From IMG/VR virus record IMGVR_UViG_2698536506_000012: 23,101 nucleotides of DNA. One strand, given 5' to 3'. This document shows, piece after piece, positions 1,260 through 23,101 of the stretch. The notes below the pieces were generated by a model. The model was not told where the DNA came from. It did no database searches and was given only the letters and a program-made list of their open reading frames with translations. The DNA comes from a virus. Taxonomy: Duplodnaviria > Heunggongvirae > Uroviricota > Caudoviricetes. Positions within the stretch are counted from its first letter, which is position 1. Each line of letters begins with the position of its first letter. A program made the position numbers and the translations under genes.

Positions 1260-1823
1260 TTACGTAACGTCAAACGCTCGAACTGAAGCCAAATCCTCCA
1301 GATTATTCAGTTCTTCCTTCATCTCTCGCTGACGGAAATAAATTTCATCATTGCGATCAACCTGCGCATGAAGCATTGCCGTAAGTAGTTCATCCAGTTG
1401 TTGCATTGACAACTTTACCTGCTGATTAACAGCATCACCCCACGTCATGACGTCCCGTGCTGTGTCGGATTTCGATGCCATCACCACCGGATAAAGACGG
1501 GCCATCGAATCCGGTCCCCCATTCCAGCTATGGCCGTTCCATTCAAAAATGAATGGCTGCGCTTCCTGTTCTGTACGCCATGCTTCAATTTCCCGGCGTT
1601 TGGCTGCTTTTGCTGCTTCCAGCATCTCTGACGTGACGGTGAACGGCGTTATTTCTCCCCATCTCCCGCTTTGCAGCTCCTGCCAGACTCGCTGCCCTGT
1701 CTCTGCTGTATCCGTGGCAGTTGCCGTATACGGAACCGGTTCATCCATGCCATCAAACAACACCCCACAGTCAATCGCGCCATTTTCAAGATAACGCGCA
1801 TTTTCGATGCGTTTTATTTCCAT
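1260..1823 (-). CDS. Tail fibre assembly/chaperone protein, DUF4376-like (about 187 aa)
   Basis: ATG at 1823 with AGGTG 5 nt upstream; stop TAA at 1262-1260. The C-terminal half (EMLEAAKAAKRREIEAWRTEQE...WGDAVNQQVKLSMQQLDELLTAMLHAQ) follows the pattern I recall for DUF4376 fibre chaperones, and it lies immediately 3' of a fibre gene. The ORF-track start at 1856 overlaps the upstream gene and is less likely. Confidence 0.7.
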   Translation of the reverse strand: MEIKRIENARYLENGAIDCGVLFDGMDEPVPYTATATDTAETGQRVWQELQSGRWGEITPFTVTSEMLEAAKAAKRREIEAWRTEQEAQPFIFEWNGHSWNGGPDSMARLYPVVMASKSDTARDVMTWGDAVNQQVKLSMQQLDELLTAMLHAQVDRNDEIYFRQREMKEELNNLEDLASVRAFDVT

Positions 1824-1830
1824 AAAACAC

Positions 1831-3255
1831 CTACGCAATACGTATGAACAAACCAATCATGACACTGGCTGACCCGGCAGACCCGAGCCCATCGCCTGAC
1901 AGTGCCCGATACGACCCCGGCATACCACCACCAGAACCCCGCACATATACGGAAACGCTGTCGTTATATCCAACCCCGCTACCGGTCGTGCCGTGACACA
2001 TAAATTCAACCGCGCTCAGGCGTGAACCCGGATAGCTGTAACCGCGTTTTATCCGGCGGTCGGTGTCTGCGTCTCCCTTACCGTTATAAGCCGCCAGTAC
2101 AAGGCTGCCTGCACCGTACCAGCCGTCCGTGGTACCGGGAGCAATACCGGACAGAAGATAGATAATGTCCTGTGAGGTAATCTTCAGATTTTCCCAGCCA
2201 GTCAGATAACCATTACCTGTTGTCCAGTAGCGGTTGTAATAAACATCGCCATTAATACCGTAGAAAATAATGGCCTTTGCTGTATATCGCGGCTCCGGTG
2301 GATTATTGCGTGCCTCAACCCACCGGATGCGGACCATCCCGTTAAACAACACACCTCCGGATATGATTTTACTGTCACCCTCAACAAAATATTCACCCGG
2401 CGTCGCATTCCTTACCCAGGACAGAAAATCATCCTCTGTGTTAAAACGGATACGCTCTGCGGGCAAAAAAATATGCCCAAAACCAAATGCACCGGGTGTC
2501 GCCAGACGGCCTTCAGTCCGGTCACGAATGTCGCTCTGTGGCGTCATTGTGGCTGCGCTTTTCAGTCCAAGATTATCACGGGATTCCTGCTGAGCCTCTT
2601 CACCTTCATCAGCCAGCTCTGATAAACGATTCGCCGTTTTCAGTGTCGCAGATAACGCAGTATCAATATCCTCCCTGACATGCTCTGCATCAGATGCGGC
2701 CTTTTTCGCGGCTTCAGCATCCTGCCTGACCTCTGCGGCGGTATCCTCAACCTGTGAGACCAGAGTTTCGGCCTGTTGTTTACCCTCCGCAACCGCGTCG
2801 GCGTTCTGCTGAACACCTTCCACCAGTTTTTTTACATCTTCTTTTGCCCGGGCGGCAGCGTCTGCATGTTGCCCTGCCTGTCGTTCGCTTTCTGTTGCAG
2901 TTTCCGCGCTCTGCTGCGCCTGCGCCACCATTTCCTCAAATCGTTTGACGACATCCGGCTTCAGGTCACCTTCATCGATGGCTGTCAGAAAATCATTCAG
3001 CGTGCCGGGCTTTGAATCGTGGTAAACCGAAATATCACCGACACAGTATTCCCTTTCAATACACGACCGAAGATAAACTTCATATTTTCCGGTCTGAGCT
3101 TCAAAAGCATATTCTCCTGCCGGACCTGTCACCACTGTAGCCACCGTTCTCATGACCACTGCGGATGTATTCTGTCGGGCTTTCAGAAGAATATGATGAC
3201 CGGACATAGGACGGCCAGCGCCATCAGCAAGAATCCCTGAGATGAGTGTGGACAT
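1831..3255 (-). CDS. Second side tail fibre protein (about 474 aa) with a Stf-like N-terminal anchor domain
   Basis: ATG at 3255; the ORF-track start at 3324 is a TTG. The N-terminus (MSTLISGILADGAGRPMSGHHILLKARQNTS...[12 protein letters not shown]...) aligns by eye with the Stf N-terminus in this window ([31 protein letters not shown]...[12 protein letters not shown]). It continues into a charged, probably coiled region and a distinct Gly/Tyr-rich C-terminal domain. Confidence 0.8.
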   Translation of the reverse strand: MSTLISGILADGAGRPMSGHHILLKARQNTSAVVMRTVATVVTGPAGEYAFEAQTGKYEVYLRSCIEREYCVGDISVYHDSKPGTLNDFLTAIDEGDLKPDVVKRFEEMVAQAQQSAETATESERQAGQHADAAARAKEDVKKLVEGVQQNADAVAEGKQQAETLVSQVEDTAAEVRQDAEAAKKAASDAEHVREDIDTALSATLKTANRLSELADEGEEAQQESRDNLGLKSAATMTPQSDIRDRTEGRLATPGAFGFGHIFLPAERIRFNTEDDFLSWVRNATPGEYFVEGDSKIISGGVLFNGMVRIRWVEARNNPPEPRYTAKAIIFYGINGDVYYNRYWTTGNGYLTGWENLKITSQDIIYLLSGIAPGTTDGWYGAGSLVLAAYNGKGDADTDRRIKRGYSYPGSRLSAVEFMCHGTTGSGVGYNDSVSVYVRGSGGGMPGSYRALSGDGLGSAGSASVMIGLFIRIA

Positions 3256-3295
3256 AAATTTTTCCCCAAAAAAGCCAGCTTTCGCCGGCAATGCT

Positions 3296-3877
3296 TTAAC
3301 TGACAGGTTGCTGCGGCCACTCAATTTCCGGCGCTAAAGATGTATCAACCCGGTTCAACAACACCCGATACTTCTTCCAGGCCGCCAGCAACGAGGTTTC
3401 TTCCTCCGTTGCAATTTCCAGATCTGCAGCATCCTGAAGCGGTGAAATATGCTCACTGGCTACCTGCATCAGGCTGTTTTTTGTTTCTTCCGCCTCCCGG
3501 ATCCGGAACAGTTTTTCTGCTTCCGTATCCTTCACCCAGGCTGTGCCGTTCCACTTCTGATATTCCCCTCCCGGCGATAACCAGGTAACATTTTCCGGTA
3601 ACGGACCAGGTTCAGAAATAAATAATGCATCCCCTGATGCCACGTCATAGACGGTTTTACCCCGATGGTCTTCAACGAGATGCCACGATGCCTCATCACT
3701 GTTGAAAACAGCCACGAAGCCAGCCGGAATATCTGGCGGTGCAATATCGGTACTGTTTGCTGGCAGACCTGTATGAGGTGGAATGTATGCATCACCTTCA
3801 CCAATAAATTCATTGGTTCCGGCCAGCAGATTATAAATTTTTATGGTCCGTGGTAGTTCACTCATTCTGAATGCCAT
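3296..3877 (-). CDS. tfa: Tail fibre assembly protein Tfa (193 aa)
   Basis: [54 protein letters not shown]... closely matches lambda Tfa as I recall it. ATG at 3877 overlaps the stf stop (TAATG). Confidence 0.93.
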
Positions 3878-6201
3878 TATGCAAGCCTCACAATATAGTT
3901 AAATGCGATGTTTTTAACGGTGTTTTCCGCGTTACCCGCAGCGTCAACAGTAATGGTATGTCCGTGTGAACCAATACTGAAAGAATGGGCATGAGCACCG
4001 ATAACAACCGGATGCTGGTGCGCACCAATACCAACTGTATGCGCATGTGCACCGGCACTCACGGCTGTACCGGACAATGAGTGACTGTGGTTGCCCTGGC
4101 TGTCCGTTTTCGATAAATAAGCAATACCCTGTGTGTTGGTTCCTTTAACTGTGGATAAACTTCCTGTAATGGTTGCTGTTCCATACTGACTCCAGCCAGA
4201 ACTGTTCATCCTTAAACCACTTGTGTGGGCATGAGCACCCGCGGCCCCTGTTGAACCGCTCAGACTGTGAGCATGAGCCCCCGTGTTATTCGTCGATTTG
4301 GTGCCGTAATCGAAACTGCCTGTTGTTTTCGTCCCGTAATCAAACGACGATGTGGTTTTCGTCCCCAAATCCGTACCGGATGCACTGGCACTGTGGGTGT
4401 GCGACTTAATTCCATCCTGTTCCTGAGACAATACAGCACGACCGCTGGCGGGTTTCCCCTTGATTGTCCAGCCTCGCATATCAGGAAGCACACCCGATGG
4501 ATACGCGACAGCAAGTTTTGGGTAGGCTGATTTGTCAAACGCCTGCCCCTGCATCAGGACGTAGCCAGACGGAACGATATCTGATGGCCACGGGATCGGC
4601 GCACCTGCCGGAAAGGCCGAATTCTCTCCGGCCCCAAGGTATTCAAGAACATCTGCAACGGAATTTTTTGCCAGAATATCCCTGCCAACCTGAGTCAGTT
4701 CAGTCAGGCTGGCGGCATCATTTTCCGTAAAATACGGTAATTTATTTTTCGCCGTGGAAAGCCCTGCCAGCGCCGTCAGTGTCGCATTCTTCGGTTGTTT
4801 ACCCGCAAGCGCGTTAGTCATGGTGGTAGCAAAATCTGGATCATTCCCGAGCGCTGCGGCCAGTTCATTCAGCGTATTCAGTGCGTCAGGTGACGCGTCG
4901 ATAACATCTGCAATCGCGGCCAGTACAAAATCGGTGTTCGCAATCTGGGTATTGTTTGTTCCCCTGAGCGCGGTTGGTGCTGTTGGCGTTCCGGTCAGTG
5001 CCGGACTGTCCAGTGGGGCTTTTCTGTTCGTTTCATCCATTACCACCTTAACCGCCTTTGGCGTTGCAGCAAGCGTTTCAGACGTGCTGTTGGTTGCACT
5101 GCTGAGCTGCACTATCCCCTTTCTCGTTGTGTCCGCATCCTCAAGCGCGACAGCTGAAGCTATATCTTCTGCACGTTTTGCCGAATTTTCTGCACGTATT
5201 GCCGCCGCTTCTGCCGCACTTTTGCTCTGCGATGCTGATACCGCACTTCCCGCAGCCTCTGTCGCCTTCGTGGATGCCGTTGACGCACTCCCCGCCGCCG
5301 CTGTTTTTGCGTCTGCCGCGGCAGAAGCGCTCCGTTCCGCTGCTGTTTCAGATGACCTGGCATTCGTCTCGGACGTTTTTGCCGCCCTGGCAGAATTTTC
5401 TGCCGCCGTTGCCGAGGAAGCTGCACGACCGGCACTTGATGATGCGTTCGTTTCTGATGATTTTGCTGCCTCTTTTGAGGCCACCGCATCTCGTGCTGAA
5501 GTGGCGGCCTCTGACGCTTTCGTGGTCGCGGTGGAGGCAGACGTGGCGGCTGATTGTTGTGACGCTGCAGCATTCGTTTCTGACGTTTTCGCCGCACCGG
5601 CACTGGTGGCCGCCGCGTTTTTTGAGGACTCTGCGGCTGCGGCACTTTTTTCCGCTTCAGTGGCCTTTGCTGATGCCGCTTCTGCGCCGGAGGACGCTTC
5701 CTGAGCTGACGATGCAGCCTGTCCGGCGGACGTGCTGGCGGCGCGTGCTGAGTCAGTTGCATCAGTCACAAGGGCCGCGACCTGAGCAGCTGATGCACTG
5801 GCATCGCCGGCTGATTTCTTCGCGTCTGCCGTACTCTGTGCCACCACGGACGCGTTACGCGCCACCTCTTCCACCATCAGTTCAAGACGGCGCAGCACCT
5901 CCGGCCGGGCATCATCCTCCGTCATGGCACAGAGAAAATCATTCAGTGTCCCCGGTTGTGAATCTTCATACACGGTGATGGTCCCGGCGTGCGATGGTGG
6001 AAAACCGTCAACCTGCAGGATGACACTGTACTGACCGTACTCCACATCCATGCTGTAACGCCCGGCTTCATCCGGATTCTCTGAGCCCACCGTGTTCACC
6101 ACCACCGTGGTGCTGTTACGTCTGGCTTTCAGCTGAATGGTGCAGTTCTGTACCGGTTTTCCTGTGCCGTCTTTCAGGACTCCTGAAATCTTTACTGCCA
6201 T
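3877..6201 (-). CDS. stf: Side tail fibre protein Stf, full length (774 aa)
   Basis: ATG at 6201; the ORF-track start at 6207 is a GTG two codons upstream. The N-terminus [26 protein letters not shown] matches lambda Stf. It has a long Ala/Ser/Thr-rich shaft and a C-terminal region with repeated GAHAHS, GNHSHS and GSHGHT (HxH) motifs. Confidence 0.93.
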
Positions 6202-6212
6202 ATTCACCCCAC

Positions 6213-6238
6213 AAAAAAGCCCACCGGTTCCGGCGGGC
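6213..6238 (-). terminator. Rho-independent terminator downstream of lom
   Basis: On the - strand: AGCCCGCCGG-AA-CCGGTGGGCT (one mismatch) followed by TTTTTT. It sits between the lom stop (6266) and the stf start (6201). Confidence 0.6.
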
Positions 6239-6265
6239 TGTCATAACACTGTGTTACCTGGCTAA

Positions 6266-6886
6266 TCAGAATTTATAACCGACCCCAACGATGAATCCGT
6301 CAGTACGCCAGTCGCCACTGCCGGAGCCTTCATAAGCAATATCAACAACGACGGACGCTGCCGGATTAATCTGTATACCTGCACTCCACGCCACTGAGGT
6401 ATGCCGCATTGCTCTTTCGTCCCTGGCGGTGGTCGTCTCTTTCATATACCCGGGAGTGATTTCCGTCTTACGGTAATCCCTTGTACTGCCGGACCACCGA
6501 CTGTGAGCCACTCCGGCCATGGCGTACGCACTGACCTGCTTACTGATTTGTAAAACCGGTCCGGCCATCACGCTCACATAACGTCCACGCAGGCTCTCAT
6601 AGTGAAACGTATCCTCCCCGGTCATCACTGTGCTGCTCTTTTTCGACGCGGCGAACCCCAGGGAAGCCATCACCCCCACACTGTCCGTCAGTTCATAACG
6701 GTACTTCACGTTAATCCCTTTCAGATGACTCACACCGGTATCCCCGCCCGACAACGACGGCAATGTACCCGGTTTCACCTGAAAATAGCCCACCGTAAAC
6801 GTACCATGTCCACCTTCCGCACGGGCCGGAGTGACTGTCACCGCAAGTGCGGCAAAGACAGCAACGGCAATACACACATTACGCAT
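6266..6886 (-). CDS. lom: Outer membrane protein Lom (Ail/Lom family, 206 aa)
   Basis: ATG at 6886 with a GAGGTGA ribosome-binding site. It has an N-terminal signal peptide (MRNVCIAVAVFAALAVTVTPARA) and a beta-barrel-like alternating sequence ending ...GFIVGVGYKF. Size and position between J and stf are as in lambda. Confidence 0.92.
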   Translation of the reverse strand: MRNVCIAVAVFAALAVTVTPARAEGGHGTFTVGYFQVKPGTLPSLSGGDTGVSHLKGINVKYRYELTDSVGVMASLGFAASKKSSTVMTGEDTFHYESLRGRYVSVMAGPVLQISKQVSAYAMAGVAHSRWSGSTRDYRKTEITPGYMKETTTARDERAMRHTSVAWSAGIQINPAASVVVDIAYEGSGSGDWRTDGFIVGVGYKF

Positions 6887-19053: not shown

Positions 19054-20082
19054 TTATTTCACCTGAACCACCACAAATGCGTCCGGATCCGGCAACACCA
19101 TCAACGGCGCAGACTGCGTCATGGTATATTCGCACCCCGGGTCCCCCACCTCTAACCAGTGTTTCGGATAACGAATTGCAGAGGTGATCCCTTCACTCAG
19201 CGCCTGGTTATCCTGGATTGCGCCATAACAACGGACACCCTCCACCTGAGTGTTTCCAAGAATCAGTGTGCCTTCCGGCAGATAACGCTGCTCATCCCCG
19301 TTTTCATCAACATACGTTGTTTTCGCCACCATGATGGCCAGATCACCGTAATAACCTTTAAAAGAAACCACGGAACCCAGATCTTTCAGCGCGGTTTCCA
19401 GTTCAGATTTTGAGCCACGGCGGGTATCCAGTTTTTCACGAAACAGCTTAAAACCGTTCAGCATACGCCAGACAGTACCGTCCATAATCGCAATATTGAT
19501 GGTACCGGAAGCAAAATCGCAGTACGCATCCAGATCATGCGTCGGATCAAAGGTGTCAGCATTCTGTTTTGACCATTCGCGTCCCCCTGCCTGCGTTATG
19601 TTATTGGCGGCAGAACGTCCAAAATCCACTTCCACCGTCTCAAACTGTTCACCGCTCATGGTGTACTTACCCTGCAGAACAGCGCTGACCGCCTGCATTT
19701 CTTCCACCTGCACAATCGCTTGCTCTTCCTGTTTCAGGTTGTCAGTCAGAATACGCAGGCGACGGTAGGCCGGGTCATTAAGACGGGCCGGATCTTCCCC
19801 CGGAAGACGCTCCACCGCCTGCTGATAATCCAGCCGGTGTTTTGGTTTAACATAGCCGGGGCGTAACACGCGGGTTTCACCACCACGACTGCGCAGTACC
19901 TTACCTGACACAACCGGAGACACATATGCCGCAACCGGTGTTTTTCCGGTGATTTTATCCAGCATCACTTCCTGAGTATGGAAAGTGACCGTACGACGAA
20001 AAAACAGCTCCAGAAACAGCGCACGGAATTTCACTTTCTGCTCGGTGTAGCCGAGCAACTGACGCGTGGTAAATAACCCCAT
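19054..20082 (-). CDS. E: Major capsid protein E (about 342 aa)
   Basis: ATG at 20082 with an AAGGAAAG ribosome-binding site. ...GYVKPKH..., ...QVEEMQAVSAVLQGKYTM..., ...KLDTRRGSKSELETA..., ...TMTQSAPLMVLPDPDAFVVVQ match lambda E. Confidence 0.95.
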   Translation of the reverse strand: MGLFTTRQLLGYTEQKVKFRALFLELFFRRTVTFHTQEVMLDKITGKTPVAAYVSPVVSGKVLRSRGGETRVLRPGYVKPKHRLDYQQAVERLPGEDPARLNDPAYRRLRILTDNLKQEEQAIVQVEEMQAVSAVLQGKYTMSGEQFETVEVDFGRSAANNITQAGGREWSKQNADTFDPTHDLDAYCDFASGTINIAIMDGTVWRMLNGFKLFREKLDTRRGSKSELETALKDLGSVVSFKGYYGDLAIMVAKTTYVDENGDEQRYLPEGTLILGNTQVEGVRCYGAIQDNQALSEGITSAIRYPKHWLEVGDPGCEYTMTQSAPLMVLPDPDAFVVVQVK

Positions 20083-20097
20083 AATTGACTTTCCTTT

Positions 20098-20128
20098 AAA
20101 AACACAAACGGGCCGCATCACGACCCGT
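20098..20128 (-). terminator. Stem-loop plus U-rich tract at the 3' end of D
   Basis: On the - strand: ACGGGUCG-UGAUG-CGGCCCGU (8-bp stem with one G-U pair; the loop contains the putative D stop TGA) followed by TTGTGTTTTT, upstream of the E ribosome-binding site. Confidence 0.4.
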
Positions 20129-20390
20129 TTTTTNNNNNNNNNNNNNNNNNNNNNNNNNNNNNNNNNNNNNNNNNNNNNNNNNNNNNNNNNNNNNNNNNNN
20201 NNNNNNNNNNNNNNNNNNNNNNNNNNNNNNNNNNNNNNNNNNNNNNNNNNNNNNNNNNNNNNNNNNNNNNNNNNNNNNNNNNNNNNNNNNNNNNAACACT
20301 GATACCACTGGTACCTGTTGCGGTATACACCGGATCGCTTCCGGCAAAAATGCGCCCGTCCGCGCGCTTTTCTGTGGTGGTTTTAATCAT
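20118..20390 (-). CDS. D: Head decoration protein D, interrupted by an assembly gap
   Basis: ATG at 20390 with an AGGAG ribosome-binding site. The N-terminus MIKTTTEKRADGRIFAGSDPVYTATGTSGISV resembles lambda D (...GNSDPAHTATAPGG...), and it sits between C and E. The frame and length across the N-run are unknown, so the stop at 20118 is tentative. Confidence 0.65.
   Translation of the reverse strand: MIKTTTEKRADGRIFAGSDPVYTATGTSGISVXXXXXXXXXXXXXXXXXXXXXXXXXXXXXXXXXXXXXXXXXXXXXXXXXXXXXXKNGS
20134..20294. other. Assembly gap (161 N)
   Basis: A run of N in the sequence, beginning directly after a T6 homopolymer. Confidence 0.99.
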
Positions 20391-20430
20391 TTTCTCAGTC
20401 TCCTGATTTATCTGAATCACGGATCCCCGC

Positions 20431-21990
20431 TTACGGCATACTCATCAGCAGTTCTTCTTCCCCGTTCCCGGCAGTTCCGCCACCGGAAACGGCACTGGCG
20501 GCATGCTGTGCCATGAAGCGCTCAAAAAGTGTTACCTGTGACGGTTGCGATACTGATGGCGCAGCTGCCAGCAGTGTTTTCGCCTGCTCCACTGTCATTC
20601 CCGGNNNNNNNNNNNNNNNNNNNNNNNNNNNNNNNNNNNNNNNNNNNNNNNNNNNNNNNNNNNNNNNNNNNNNNNNNNNNNNNNNNNNNNNNNNNNNNNN
20701 NNNNNNNNNNNNNNNNNNNNNNNNNNNNNNNNNNNNNNNNNNNNNNNNNNNNNNNNNNNNNNNNNNNNNNNNNNNCGGTGCCGCTGCCAGTAACGTTTTC
20801 GCCTGCTCCACCGTCATTCCCGGCTGTTCAGCCAGCGTCCGTGCCAGTTGTTCACGTCCTTTTGCTTCCGGAAGTGCCACAATCTGATCGCCTGTGCTGT
20901 CAGTACCGGCAACCGGTGCTGCCGCCAGTAATGTTTTTGCCTGCTCAACTGACATTCCCTGCTGACCTGCCAGCATCTGCGCCAGTTTTTCGCGTCCTTT
21001 CGCCTCCTGACAATTCAGGATCCCCATCACGCGCTGATTTTCCTGGGACACCGCTTCAGCAACGGTGAGATTTTTTGTTGTCATCGTATTCTCCTGTGTA
21101 ACAGAGTCGTTCAGAGCAGAAACCATTACATCAACGGCATCTGCAGCATTAATCAGTTGATCAGCCAGGCCTGTATCAATGCCTGCCTGACCGTCATAAA
21201 CGGCAGCCTCGGTATTCATCACCACCTCTGAACTCAGCCCCGTATAAAGTGCCACCTTGTCGACAAACATCCGGCGGGCCTCATCAATACGGCGCTGAAA
21301 ATCCGCACGCACACCTGTCGGCAACGCCTGAATACTGTTGCCGTCAACCTTGTGCTGCCCGGAATAAATCAGCGTGATATCCACGCCTTCCTGTGCCAGT
21401 TGTTTCTCGTAACTGGTGTGCGCCATCATCACACCAATCGAACCAATTTTTGCCGTCTGCGTGACCAGCCGACGCGTACAGGCCGCCGCCAGCAACATGG
21501 CGGCTGAACAGGCCATGTCATTACACAGCGCCCACACGGGCTTCTGTTCCCGCAGACGGTAAATCATGTCAGCACAGTCAAACGCCCCGGCAGCCTGACC
21601 GCCCGGGCTGTCGATATCCAGTAAAATACCGCGTACATCCGGGTCGTTCACCGCTGACTTAAGACGGGCAGTCAGACCGTCATAACCGGTCATACCGGAA
21701 TATGGCCGCAGGGTACCCATTTTATGTACCAGCGTGCCGCTCACCGGCAGAATGGCAATCCCATTTTTCACCTGGTAACTCTTTACCGGACGCGGACCAC
21801 CAGTCATATAATCGGTAACCGCCAGCTGCATACCATCGGCATCAAGCTGAACGGCCTGCTGCGGAACGGCAAGGCTGCCCGCCCCAATTTCCTTACCCAG
21901 TGCGCAAAAGAAAACCCGCGCATAGGCGGGTTCCAGTAAAAGCGGCTCATTAAATGCCATCGCGGCAATATGTGATAAATTACAGCGCAT
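20431..21990 (-). CDS. C: Head maturation protease / scaffold C (S49/ClpP-like; Nu3-like scaffold region in its C-terminal part), gap-interrupted
   Basis: ATG at 21990. The N-terminus ...HIAAMAFNEPLLLEPAYARVFFCAL... and ...PVWALCNDMACSAAMLLAAACTRRLVTQTAKIGSIGVMMAH...ITLIYSGQHKVDGN... match lambda C. ...RVMGILNCQEAKGRE... corresponds to the lambda ...RIMGILNCEEAHGRE... region. Confidence 0.9.
   Translation of the reverse strand: MRCNLSHIAAMAFNEPLLLEPAYARVFFCALGKEIGAGSLAVPQQAVQLDADGMQLAVTDYMTGGPRPVKSYQVKNGIAILPVSGTLVHKMGTLRPYSGMTGYDGLTARLKSAVNDPDVRGILLDIDSPGGQAAGAFDCADMIYRLREQKPVWALCNDMACSAAMLLAAACTRRLVTQTAKIGSIGVMMAHTSYEKQLAQEGVDITLIYSGQHKVDGNSIQALPTGVRADFQRRIDEARRMFVDKVALYTGLSSEVVMNTEAAVYDGQAGIDTGLADQLINAADAVDVMVSALNDSVTQENTMTTKNLTVAEAVSQENQRVMGILNCQEAKGREKLAQMLAGQQGMSVEQAKTLLAAAPVAGTDSTGDQIVALPEAKGREQLARTLAEQPGMTVEQAKTLLAAAPXXXXXXXXXXXXXXXXXXXXXXXXXXXXXXXXXXXXXXXXXXXXXXXXXXXXXXXXXPGMTVEQAKTLLAAAPSVSQPSQVTLFERFMAQHAASAVSGGGTAGNGEEELLMSMP
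20560..20965 (-). repeat. Tandem in-frame 138-bp (46-codon) repeats inside C; at least 3 copies spanning the gap
   Basis: The block GCCAGTAA(C/T)GTTTT(T)GCCTGCTC(C/A)AC(C/T)G(T/A)CATTCC recurs starting at 20786 and 20924 (exact 138-bp spacing), with a further copy ending at 20604. The protein motif (Q/P)GM(S/T)VEQAKTLLAAAP occurs three times. Confidence 0.75.
20605..20775. other. Assembly gap (171 N) inside the C repeat region
   Basis: A run of N flanked on both sides by copies of the 138-bp repeat. Confidence 0.99.
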
Positions 21991-23101
21991 CGCCTTTTTC
22001 TCCCGTTGTCTGTCGGATCTGCTGTTGAAACGCGTCCTTTATCCAGACCGGACGCGGAAGACCGGCAGCCTGTCGCTCCTGAGTTTCCCGTAGCTGCTGG
22101 CGGAAAATCTCCTGATAGTCATCCCCCATCAGGGCCAGCTCTTTCTCGTATGTACTCAGGCCGCCTTCAATGCGCATCACCGCTTCCTGCACTTCCTTAA
22201 GGCCATCAATCGCCATACGACCGGCACCAATCCACTCGGCACGGCACCACCCGGAACGAGCCTCCCAGAATGAGAAACGGGATTTCGGCGGACGGATCAC
22301 ACCACGAATAAGGGCTTCCTCCAGCCAGCAGGCAAACATCTGTGACGCCAGGCGACTGGCCACAAATTTTCGTTTTCCCATAAAATACCGCCACGACTCA
22401 TTGGCGGATGCCCTGGCACTGGAATAACTGACCTGTGAATAATCCCGGGAAAGCTGCTCATACGACACACCCAGTCCGGCAGCAATGTAACGTAACAGCG
22501 CCTTTTCCAGTTCAGAAAAACCATTATCCGCATTCTGGGCTGTCTGCAGATTCAGTGAATCTCCCGGGTAAAGATGCGGAATACGGACTCCGCCCAGTTT
22601 TACCGTATTGGTGGCGTAATAACGCGCGTAGCCTTTCATGATGGTGTTCAGGGGATTTTTACCTCCATCTCCCACCCCGGCGATATATTCAAACGCTTTT
22701 TCCGAATCCAGTGTGGATTCAATCGTGGCGGCATACATGGCGCGAACCACCGCCGACTGCAGTTGCGTGGCCTGCAGTGTGTCGAGCATCTTGAGACGCT
22801 CCATTACAGAATAAAACTGGTTGGCCCCGCGGGTCTGCCCGTCTTCCTGTGGCTGAAACACATGGATCATTCCCGGTCGTCCGGAAGGCAGTGTTGCCGT
22901 AATTCGTGTCCATTTACTGACACCGTAGCCGGGCCAGTCATCATCCTGAACATGGTAGGCCAGCGCTTTTCCGTGTCGGTTTATTTCCACCCCGGCACGC
23001 ATAAAACGATCGCCGGTACCATAACCGGGTGTACTGACACGCTTCGGGCTGATGGTTTTGAATTTCGTCCGGAATAATGACGTGGATTCCGCATCCCATA
23101 C
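21980..23101 (-). CDS. B: Portal protein B, C-terminal part (5' end lies beyond the window)
   Basis: The frame stays open from 23002 to the window edge; my hand translation reads ...KFKTISPKRVSTPGYGTGDRFMRAGVEINRHG..., which aligns with lambda B ...FRMVSPKRISNPNNTGDSRNCRAGVQINDSG.... Downstream, ...HVFQPQEDGQTRGANQFYSVMERLKMLDTLQATQLQSAVVRAMYAATIES...GRMAIDGLKEVQEAVM... also matches. Confidence 0.93.
   Translation of the reverse strand, partial: VWDAESTSLFRTKFKTISPKRVSTPGYGTGDRFMRAGVEINRHGKALAYHVQDDDWPGYGVSKWTRITATLPSGRPGMIHVFQPQEDGQTRGANQFYSVMERLKMLDTLQATQLQSAVVRAMYAATIESTLDSEKAFEYIAGVGDGGKNPLNTIMKGYARYYATNTVKLGGVRIPHLYPGDSLNLQTAQNADNGFSELEKALLRYIAAGLGVSYEQLSRDYSQVSYSSARASANESWRYFMGKRKFVASRLASQMFACWLEEALIRGVIRPPKSRFSFWEARSGWCRAEWIGAGRMAIDGLKEVQEAVMRIEGGLSTYEKELALMGDDYQEIFRQQLRETQERQAAGLPRPVWIKDAFQQQIRQTTGEKGDAL

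Follow-up and report, generated by a model that had tools for sequence, protein, structure and literature searches.

A tandem array of a Nu3-like scaffold module in a lambdoid prohead protease gene, interrupted by an assembly gap of incorrect length

The virus record IMGVR_UViG_2698536506_000012 of IMG/VR comprises 23,101 nucleotides (the window) and carries a lambda gpC-type gene in which an S49 prohead protease continues in frame into a Nu3-type scaffold region. Within this region we found a tandem array of a 46-residue module, broken by a run of undetermined bases (N-run; Table 1). The gene as recorded has 519 codons, 57 of them X, and the open reading frame translates as ...EAKGREKLAQMLAGQQGMSVEQAKTLLAAAP...EAKGREQLARTLAEQPGMTVEQAKTLLAAAP(57 X)PGMTVEQAKTLLAAAPSVSQ... 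The motif VEQAK occurs at residues 348, 394 and 467, with a spacing of 46 residues (138 bp) followed by one of 73 residues (219 bp). At the DNA level, positions 20776–20872 are 80% identical to positions 20914–21010 at an offset of 138, and a 47-nt partial third copy lies beyond the gap at 20558–20604 (offset 219). One 29-mer taken from the repeat is present twice in the window, whereas 100 shuffles give an expectation of 0.00. Translation, DNA identity and 29-mer count thus confirm an in-frame 138-bp tandem repeat in the protease/scaffold gene, as proposed in the initial annotation, which was made from the letters of the window and its reading frames. That annotation also placed the N-run inside the array with a spacing of 219 bp across it, and the run is indeed exactly 171 N long. 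Other details required correction. Three copies at 138-bp intervals had been described on the resolved side of the gap; two are present there, in uninterrupted sequence, and the third appears only across the gap. The site given, 20560–20965, was right in place but too narrow, and the array extends from 20536 to 21030. Tandem Repeats Finder, run on the window, did not report the array, because only two resolved copies are adjacent (80% alike) and the N-run cuts the rest.

The N-terminal 302 residues of the gene product hold a Peptidase_S49 domain and the C-terminal part holds the repeat motif. The Pfam profile scores 115 bits against a cut-off of 24.9, as measured on the near-identical protein of the closest finished relative, which differs by one residue in the domain. 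The gene thus has the catalytic domain of a lambda gpC-type prohead protease. Moreover, the SppA structures 3rst and 4kwb match the gene product in a phmmer search (E 6e-17), and the alignment places the serine of ..NDMACSAAM.. on a serine of the SppA motif ..SMAASGG.., which we take to be the SppA nucleophile; a candidate nucleophile is thus probably in place. Residues 1–302 of the window's own protein match the NCBIfam model SppA_dom with an E-value of 5e-32; the score does not reach the curated cut-off, which is what one expects of a phage relative. The profile phrog_53 (head maturation protease) matches the gene with an E-value of 4e-218. Further Pfam matches in the repeat region (T2SSK, Peptidase_C23, Bac_DNA_binding, HTH_15 and others) were rejected as spurious, being short, low in complexity, rich in Ala and Leu and summed over the repeats.

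The genes around this locus are all encoded on the minus strand and constitute a lambda-type head module, and the protease gene sits between the portal gene on one side and the decoration and major capsid genes on the other, as a lambda gpC-type protease does. In relatives the gene is annotated as 'S49 family peptidase' and is flanked by portal and head-decoration genes, in the order portal, S49 peptidase, head decoration, major capsid and FI. Two antisense reading frames, 20513..20887(+) and 20529..21068(+), were set aside as mechanical products of the listing of reading frames; both cross the N-run and lie opposite the conserved, selected frame.

Within the gene, a Shine-Dalgarno sequence precedes an ATG at codon 303 that is in frame with the protease. 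The equivalent Shine-Dalgarno sequence and ATG were found in the E. coli loci L001 and L004 described below, in Gifsy-1, in lambda (residue 309) and in phi80 (residue 311), where codon 311 is annotated as gp6, 'internal in-frame translational start within gene 5'. The sequence thus predicts an in-frame internal start with a ribosome-binding site and a C-terminus common to both products, the arrangement of a Nu3-type scaffold. The PHROG scaffold and capsid-assembly profiles 8399 and 8940 match the scaffold region in four stretches. In line with the earlier suggestion, the repeats therefore coincide with the Nu3-like part, which is predicted to be initiated internally at the ATG at 21084 and is matched by scaffolding profiles. 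In the four-copy form the array makes up 184 of the 236 residues of the nested product. A hidden Markov model (HMM) of the repeat unit, built from the lineage of the window, finds one copy in lambda C (residues 364–404, ILNCEEAHGREEQARVLAETPGMTVKTARRILAAAP, E 3e-17) and one in phi80 (372–411, E 8e-19), so that the single copy given for lambda C in the initial annotation was correct. The same model finds three diverged copies each in Gifsy-1 and in Escherichia phage PhiR12_1. Together with the four stretches matched by phrog_8399 ('head scaffolding protein'), these hits indicate homology to the Nu3 module and tail.

Table 1. Features of the protease/scaffold gene and its neighbours in the window
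Feature	Position	Strand	Evidence and remarks
Lambda gpC-type gene	20431..21990	-	Open reading frame and translation; S49 prohead protease in frame with Nu3-type scaffold region; broken by 171-N run
Peptidase_S49 (SppA-like) catalytic domain, residues 146-290	21121..21555	-	Pfam PF01343, E 4.1e-33
Candidate internal start of nested scaffold	21082..21095	-	AGGAG (21095-21091), 6-nt spacer, ATG (21084-21082); strand reads ACACAGGAGAATACGATGACAACA
Nu3-like scaffold reading frame	20431..21084	-	236 residues given four copies as in closest relatives
Repeat copy 1, residues 321-366: VMGILNCQEAKGREKLAQMLAGQQGMSVEQAKTLLAAAPVAGTDST	20893..21030	-	Unit HMM, 91 bits
Repeat copy 2, resolved part, residues 367-405	20776..20892	-	Last 7 codons inside N-run; 100% identical to L001 copy 2
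171-N scaffolding gap	20605..20775	.	228 bp in closest finished relatives: end of copy 2, whole of copy 3, first half of copy 4
Last repeat copy, resolved 3' half (PGMTVEQAKTLLAAAPSVSQPSQ)	20536..20604	-	100% identity to L001 over 20295-20604
Single-copy C-terminal tail (VTLFERFMAQHAAS...EELLMSMP)	20434..20535	-	Counterpart of lambda tail ...ALDRLM...DLLNTPV
Lambda-family portal gene, Phage_portal_2	21980..23002	-	
gpD-like decoration gene	downstream neighbour of the gpC-type gene	-	Mostly masked by first N-run
gpE-type major capsid gene, Phage_cap_E	19054..20085	-	

Megablast against 5,426 complete E. coli genomes found the gene in 106 of them, and four loci were fetched (L001–L004). The closest, L001 from E. 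coli strain C5, is identical to the window over 20295–20604 and 99.65% identical over 20776–22800. The 171-N gap corresponds to 228 bp in L001, L003 and L004 and to 90 bp in L002, and the encoded proteins have either 538 residues with four 46-residue units or 492 residues with three. Exactly one other N-run exists in the window (20134–20294, 161 N); it hides the 3' two-thirds of the gpD-like decoration gene including the stop codon. In its place each of the four aligned relatives has 259 bp, and the run is thus 98 bases short, which is not a multiple of three. Every one of the 107 matching E. coli records covers this 259-bp segment to at least 80%, and the ten listed contain it at full length. 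Because the relatives have 228 and 259 bp at these places and a regular 46-residue spacing, the N-run lengths are estimates and both are too short. The suspicion that the gap length was wrong has thus proved sound, with 228 bp in three of the four aligned relatives and 90 bp in the three-copy genome. From these alignments, the true state of the window is most likely four copies, a 228-bp gap and a protein of 538 residues. The record's version of the gene is wrong, and lengths of about 228 bp for this gap and about 259 bp for the neighbouring one in gpD should be assumed instead.

A query spanning the array (L001 1600–2500) matched 107 complete-genome records, 105 of which cover at least 80% of this four-copy sequence. 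Spans are known for the 60 listed: 59 measure 900–901 bp, equal to four copies, and one (PapRG-04-4) measures 763 bp, equal to three. The four-copy form is present in about 2% of complete E. coli genomes. Among viral contigs, 80 IMG/VR loci were kept, 50 from the high-similarity lineage and 30 of the Gifsy-1/PhiR12_1 type. The lineage has four copies in 43 loci, three in 3, two in 2 (plus 1 truncated locus) and five in 1. Copies in resolved relatives are spaced by 46 residues, bar two intervals of 47 (L014 and L051). Strain-to-strain length variation, as predicted in the initial annotation, therefore exists, with a copy number from 2 to 5, but it is much rarer than the wording implied and four copies dominate. 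The lineage has been seen only as prophages and viral contigs. An initial search of protein databases with the scaffold part yielded chiefly truncated 'partial' proteins with 1–4 copies and lacked full-length close relatives, and it was not used for frequencies; many database entries of the family end at the same place as the gap of the window. The four-copy form is already in the databases, unremarked and annotated as 'S49 family peptidase', and the literature searched gave no description of repeats in Nu3-type scaffolds or of their copy-number polymorphism.

Comparing the individual units reveals how the array has changed. Copies 2 and 3 are the most alike (89% DNA identity), with copies 1 and 4 more distant, and each L001 copy is nearest to the same-numbered copy of L003 and L004. 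This copy-by-copy orthology means that the four-copy state is older than the roughly 13% DNA divergence. In the three-copy locus L002, the middle unit is 95% identical to L001 copy 2 and 94% identical to copy 3, which fits a hybrid formed by unequal crossover. Moreover, the five-copy L023, three-copy L047 and two-copy L055 alleles consist of identical units within one sub-lineage, a pattern that indicates recent expansion and contraction. Between L001 and L004, the array has a ratio of non-synonymous to synonymous substitution rates (dN/dS) of 0.13 and the protease domain one of 0.10, and therefore all copies have been kept by selection. It is this purifying selection from which we argue that the region is functional; its role as a scaffold is predicted. 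The synonymous divergence (dS) of the same pair is 0.60 in the array, more than twice the 0.26 of the adjoining protease domain, and hints at a mosaic history or gene conversion among copies.

We propose that a helical module of about 46 residues, single in lambda Nu3, was amplified in frame into a tandem array in this lineage. Four copies would be the ancestral and strongly dominant state of the E. coli prophage lineage, from which occasional unequal recombination or slippage between copies would give rise to alleles with two, three or five. The gap in the draft assembly, its length misestimated, would then hide about 228 bp of the gene.

The window phage might instead carry another number of modules, most plausibly three and possibly two or five, in which case the gap would stand for 90 bp (or 366 bp and so on). 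Three-copy alleles do occur, both in the close relative L002, which is 98.6% identical, and in 3 of the 50 IMG/VR loci; two- and five-copy alleles exist as well, and the estimated 171 falls between 90 and 228. However, the four-copy span is found in every one of the 18 complete genomes with at least 98% identity over the array-spanning query. Copy 2 and the last copy of the window are identical to copies 2 and 4 of L001, whereas the middle unit of L002 is an apparent hybrid of copies 2 and 3. Underestimation is, moreover, the pattern of this record, as seen in the 98 bases missing from its other gap. We therefore consider a different copy number unlikely. It is far less probable still that the N-run has the right length and that the array is irregular, with a 219-bp spacing and a partial or aberrant unit of 73 residues. 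That 171 is a multiple of three, so that the frame is kept through the gap, would agree with such an array, but no copy spacing near 73 residues exists among resolved relatives with a near-identical array, and the other N-run is demonstrably wrong, with 161 N against a 259-bp segment matched in all 107 relatives. The initial annotation had also allowed for a resolved sequence with a single motif copy, in which case the repeats would be an artefact of duplicated or collapsed reads and the real gene would have one module like that of lambda. An assembly gap does fall in this region, and many homologues in the databases are 'partial' and end at contig ends. Yet finished genomes have three or four copies (one and 59 of those listed, respectively), and dozens of independent viral contigs have two to five. 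The copies differ from each other by 11–40% at the DNA level, are orthologous copy by copy between genomes and evolve under the constraint described above. Given the many finished genomes, the diverged orthologous copies and the unbroken copies in the window itself, an artefact is effectively refuted.

A separate question is why the assembly broke at this site. The left contig ends inside a 17-mer at L001 1799–1815 that recurs at 1937 and 2075, and the right contig starts at L001 2038, the start of a 17-mer also present at 1900. Contig ends at the edges of 17-mers common to several copies fit a small-k assembler breaking on the intragenic repeat. The gap could alternatively have arisen if the genome contains a second lambdoid prophage, a paralogue that confounds short-read assembly, an explanation that bears on the cause of the gap alone. 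In its favour, the longest exact repeat inside the gene is only 25 bp, and the second gap lies 310 bp away within the non-repetitive gpD gene. In addition, several E. coli genomes have between two and five places that match the C gene segment, and in C5, the closest genome, the C and the D segments each match at two; its second place is possibly a paralogous prophage. We regard prophage paralogy as a serious explanation, though less likely than not. Both causes may have acted together. Several related lambdoid prophages per genome are common, and the many 'partial' entries that databases contain for this protein probably stem from them.

To describe the unit itself, we turned to AlphaFold2. 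The model of a four-copy homologue has a predicted local distance difference test score (pLDDT) of 61 and a predicted template modelling score (pTM) of 0.29, with copies 3 and 4 at about 85 and poorly defined linkers. The window's own two-copy segment reaches a pLDDT of 77. Each predicted unit consists of a short helix, a second helix (REQLAxxL), a loop (EQPGMT) and a third helix (VEQAKTLLAA), with a pLDDT of about 80–86 over the three short helices and low confidence in the linkers. The models thus predict a small three-helix module on a flexible linker of Ala, Gly, Thr and Ser. The nearest folds are other small three-helix modules, namely staphylococcal protein A domains, RuvA domain III and UBA/CUE domains, as well as C-terminal regions of other S49 proteases from phages. 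The scores of the three-helix modules are weak and come without homology, and they describe a likeness in shape rather than a functional assignment. When the four-copy model was compared with the PDB by Foldseek, no hit had an E-value below 4.6, a result that is meaningless given the pTM of that model.

The overall organisation of the gene is that of lambda gpC/Nu3. Both share the gene order portal, C/Nu3, D and E, the S49 domain and the internal Shine-Dalgarno sequence and ATG at an equivalent codon. Lambda-type phages are about 54% identical over residues 4–359. The module, ...ENxR(I/V)MGILNC(E/Q)EA(H/K)GRE...PGM(T/S)V..A..(I/L)LAAAP, is homologous, as is the C-terminal tail. However, there is a clear difference in architecture. 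Whereas lambda has one module after a low-complexity spacer of about 55 residues, the lineage of the window has a short N-terminal segment followed by 2–5 modules, usually four. Counted from the equivalent start, the scaffold of lambda has about 131 residues and that of the window lineage 236.

Closer in build are Gifsy-1 STM2605, annotated as similar to phage 21 gp5/gp6, and the 'head-tail preconnector protein Nu3' of PhiR12_1, which are 66–67% identical over residues 1–447. In them, too, the N-terminal scaffold segment is short and the module is repeated several times in tandem. Their three copies are strongly diverged and spaced by 47–48 residues, and all 30 IMG/VR loci of this type have three. 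A two-copy recombinant of the type is known in P0040. In the window lineage, by contrast, the copies are more numerous and polymorphic in number, and they resemble each other more closely, with DNA identities of up to 89% and identical units in L023. Multi-copy scaffolds are thus not confined to the window lineage. When one 42-residue unit was searched with phmmer against 1.84 billion representatives at 50% identity, 60 matches were obtained, mostly single-copy proteins of 430–550 residues, although the query is too short for a census. In Bradyrhizobium, the proteins P0081, P0082, P0098, P0099, P0110 and P0074 are stand-alone products of 160–200 residues with two copies of the module and an A-E-R-x-R-(F/L) helix before each, and the protein-database search recorded no S49 domain for them. 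The module is therefore also a free multi-copy scaffold far outside the enterobacteria.

Lambda Nu3 interacts with B, E, C and itself, shares its C-terminus with gpC and is needed for portal incorporation (PMC3224144). Scaffolds of P22 and other phages bind coat protein through small C-terminal helical motifs (PMC11565965). P22 gp8's helix-turn-helix at the C-terminus, like the helical motifs of SPP1, phi29 and 80alpha, resembles our module in mechanism only, as a small helical motif that contacts the shell within an otherwise flexible protein. Unlike the array described here, P22 gp8 has a single motif and no fused protease. Neither a sequence match nor a significant fold match to the P22 coat-binding helix-turn-helix was found for the module, which is accordingly not assigned to that family.

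Starting from the observed anatomy, homology, copy-number series, purifying selection and gap error, we infer the partners of the module and the effect of additional copies. In our proposal, the full-length S49 protease and the internally started scaffold would have one common C-terminal region, and the amplified unit within it would serve as a module for protein-protein contacts. Arranged in tandem on flexible linkers, the copies would render the scaffold and the tethered protease multivalent, like 'beads-on-a-string', and would bind partners in the procapsid, be it the coat gpE, the portal gpB or the scaffold itself. The single-copy tail (...FERFM...LLMSMP; ...DRLM...LLNTPV in lambda) would be kept unchanged. 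Taken as a whole, the reading of the locus as a gpC/Nu3-type gene with an amplified array of a multivalent contact module, four copies and a gap of wrong length appears probable to us. Several points weigh against it. As the window itself is gapped, its four copies are deduced from relatives, and one relative with 98.6% identity has a three-copy allele. In a megablast comparison with 50,697 phage records, no isolated phage had a near-identical array. The coat-binding element could be the single-copy C-terminal tail instead of the module. Finally, genome-sized contigs of four-copy relatives are lambda-like, at about 44–47 kb, and give no sign of a changed capsid size. Accordingly, the idea that extra copies accompany a bigger capsid has no support, as near-complete relatives of 44–47 kb are about the size of lambda.

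More speculatively, the number of modules could be a selectable and quickly mutable setting, with alleles of two to five copies, built from identical units, altering the valency or reach of the scaffold and its tethered protease inside the procapsid; we think this improbable. Were it true, copy number could tune the rate or fidelity of assembly or the stoichiometry of scaffold to coat. It could also aid escape from, or adaptation to, satellites or defence systems that exploit or sense lambdoid head-assembly proteins, and the array would be a natural allelic series relating scaffold valency to capsid assembly. The contacts of lambda Nu3 with its partners are still poorly defined and the conserved module lacks a Pfam family. 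The natural series of one copy (lambda, phi80), three diverged copies (Gifsy-1, PhiR12_1) and two to five near-identical copies (window lineage) is thus ready-made for asking which partner the module has and whether valency matters. The array is a modest architectural variant of a well-known system and overturns nothing known of lambdoid head assembly.

Elsewhere in the head module, a terminator-like hairpin lies at 20106–20130 (-), between the gpD stop and the gpE start, and reads AAACGGGTCGTGATGCGGCCCGTTT followed by GTGTTTTT. A hairpin with T-rich sequence is found at the same place in lambda and phi80, with clear T-runs, and in Gifsy-1, with a shorter T stretch. From these sequences the hairpin looks like a conserved lambdoid feature, and it may set the ratio of D to E expression or stabilise the mRNA.

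At the other end of the window, smpB (1–483, +) is followed by the tmRNA gene ssrA (698–1060, +), which encodes the tag ANDENYALAA, and the tail-fibre end of the prophage starts directly after it. The prophage therefore appears to be integrated at ssrA. Beyond this point lie, all on the minus strand, an open reading frame with DUF4376 (1260–1856), two tail-fibre genes with a phage_tail_N domain (1831–3324 and 3877–6207), a Caudo_TAP assembly gene between them (3296–3877) and a gene for an outer-membrane protein of the Lom/Ail family (6266–6886). The genes at 1260–6886 look like a duplicated side-tail-fibre cassette.

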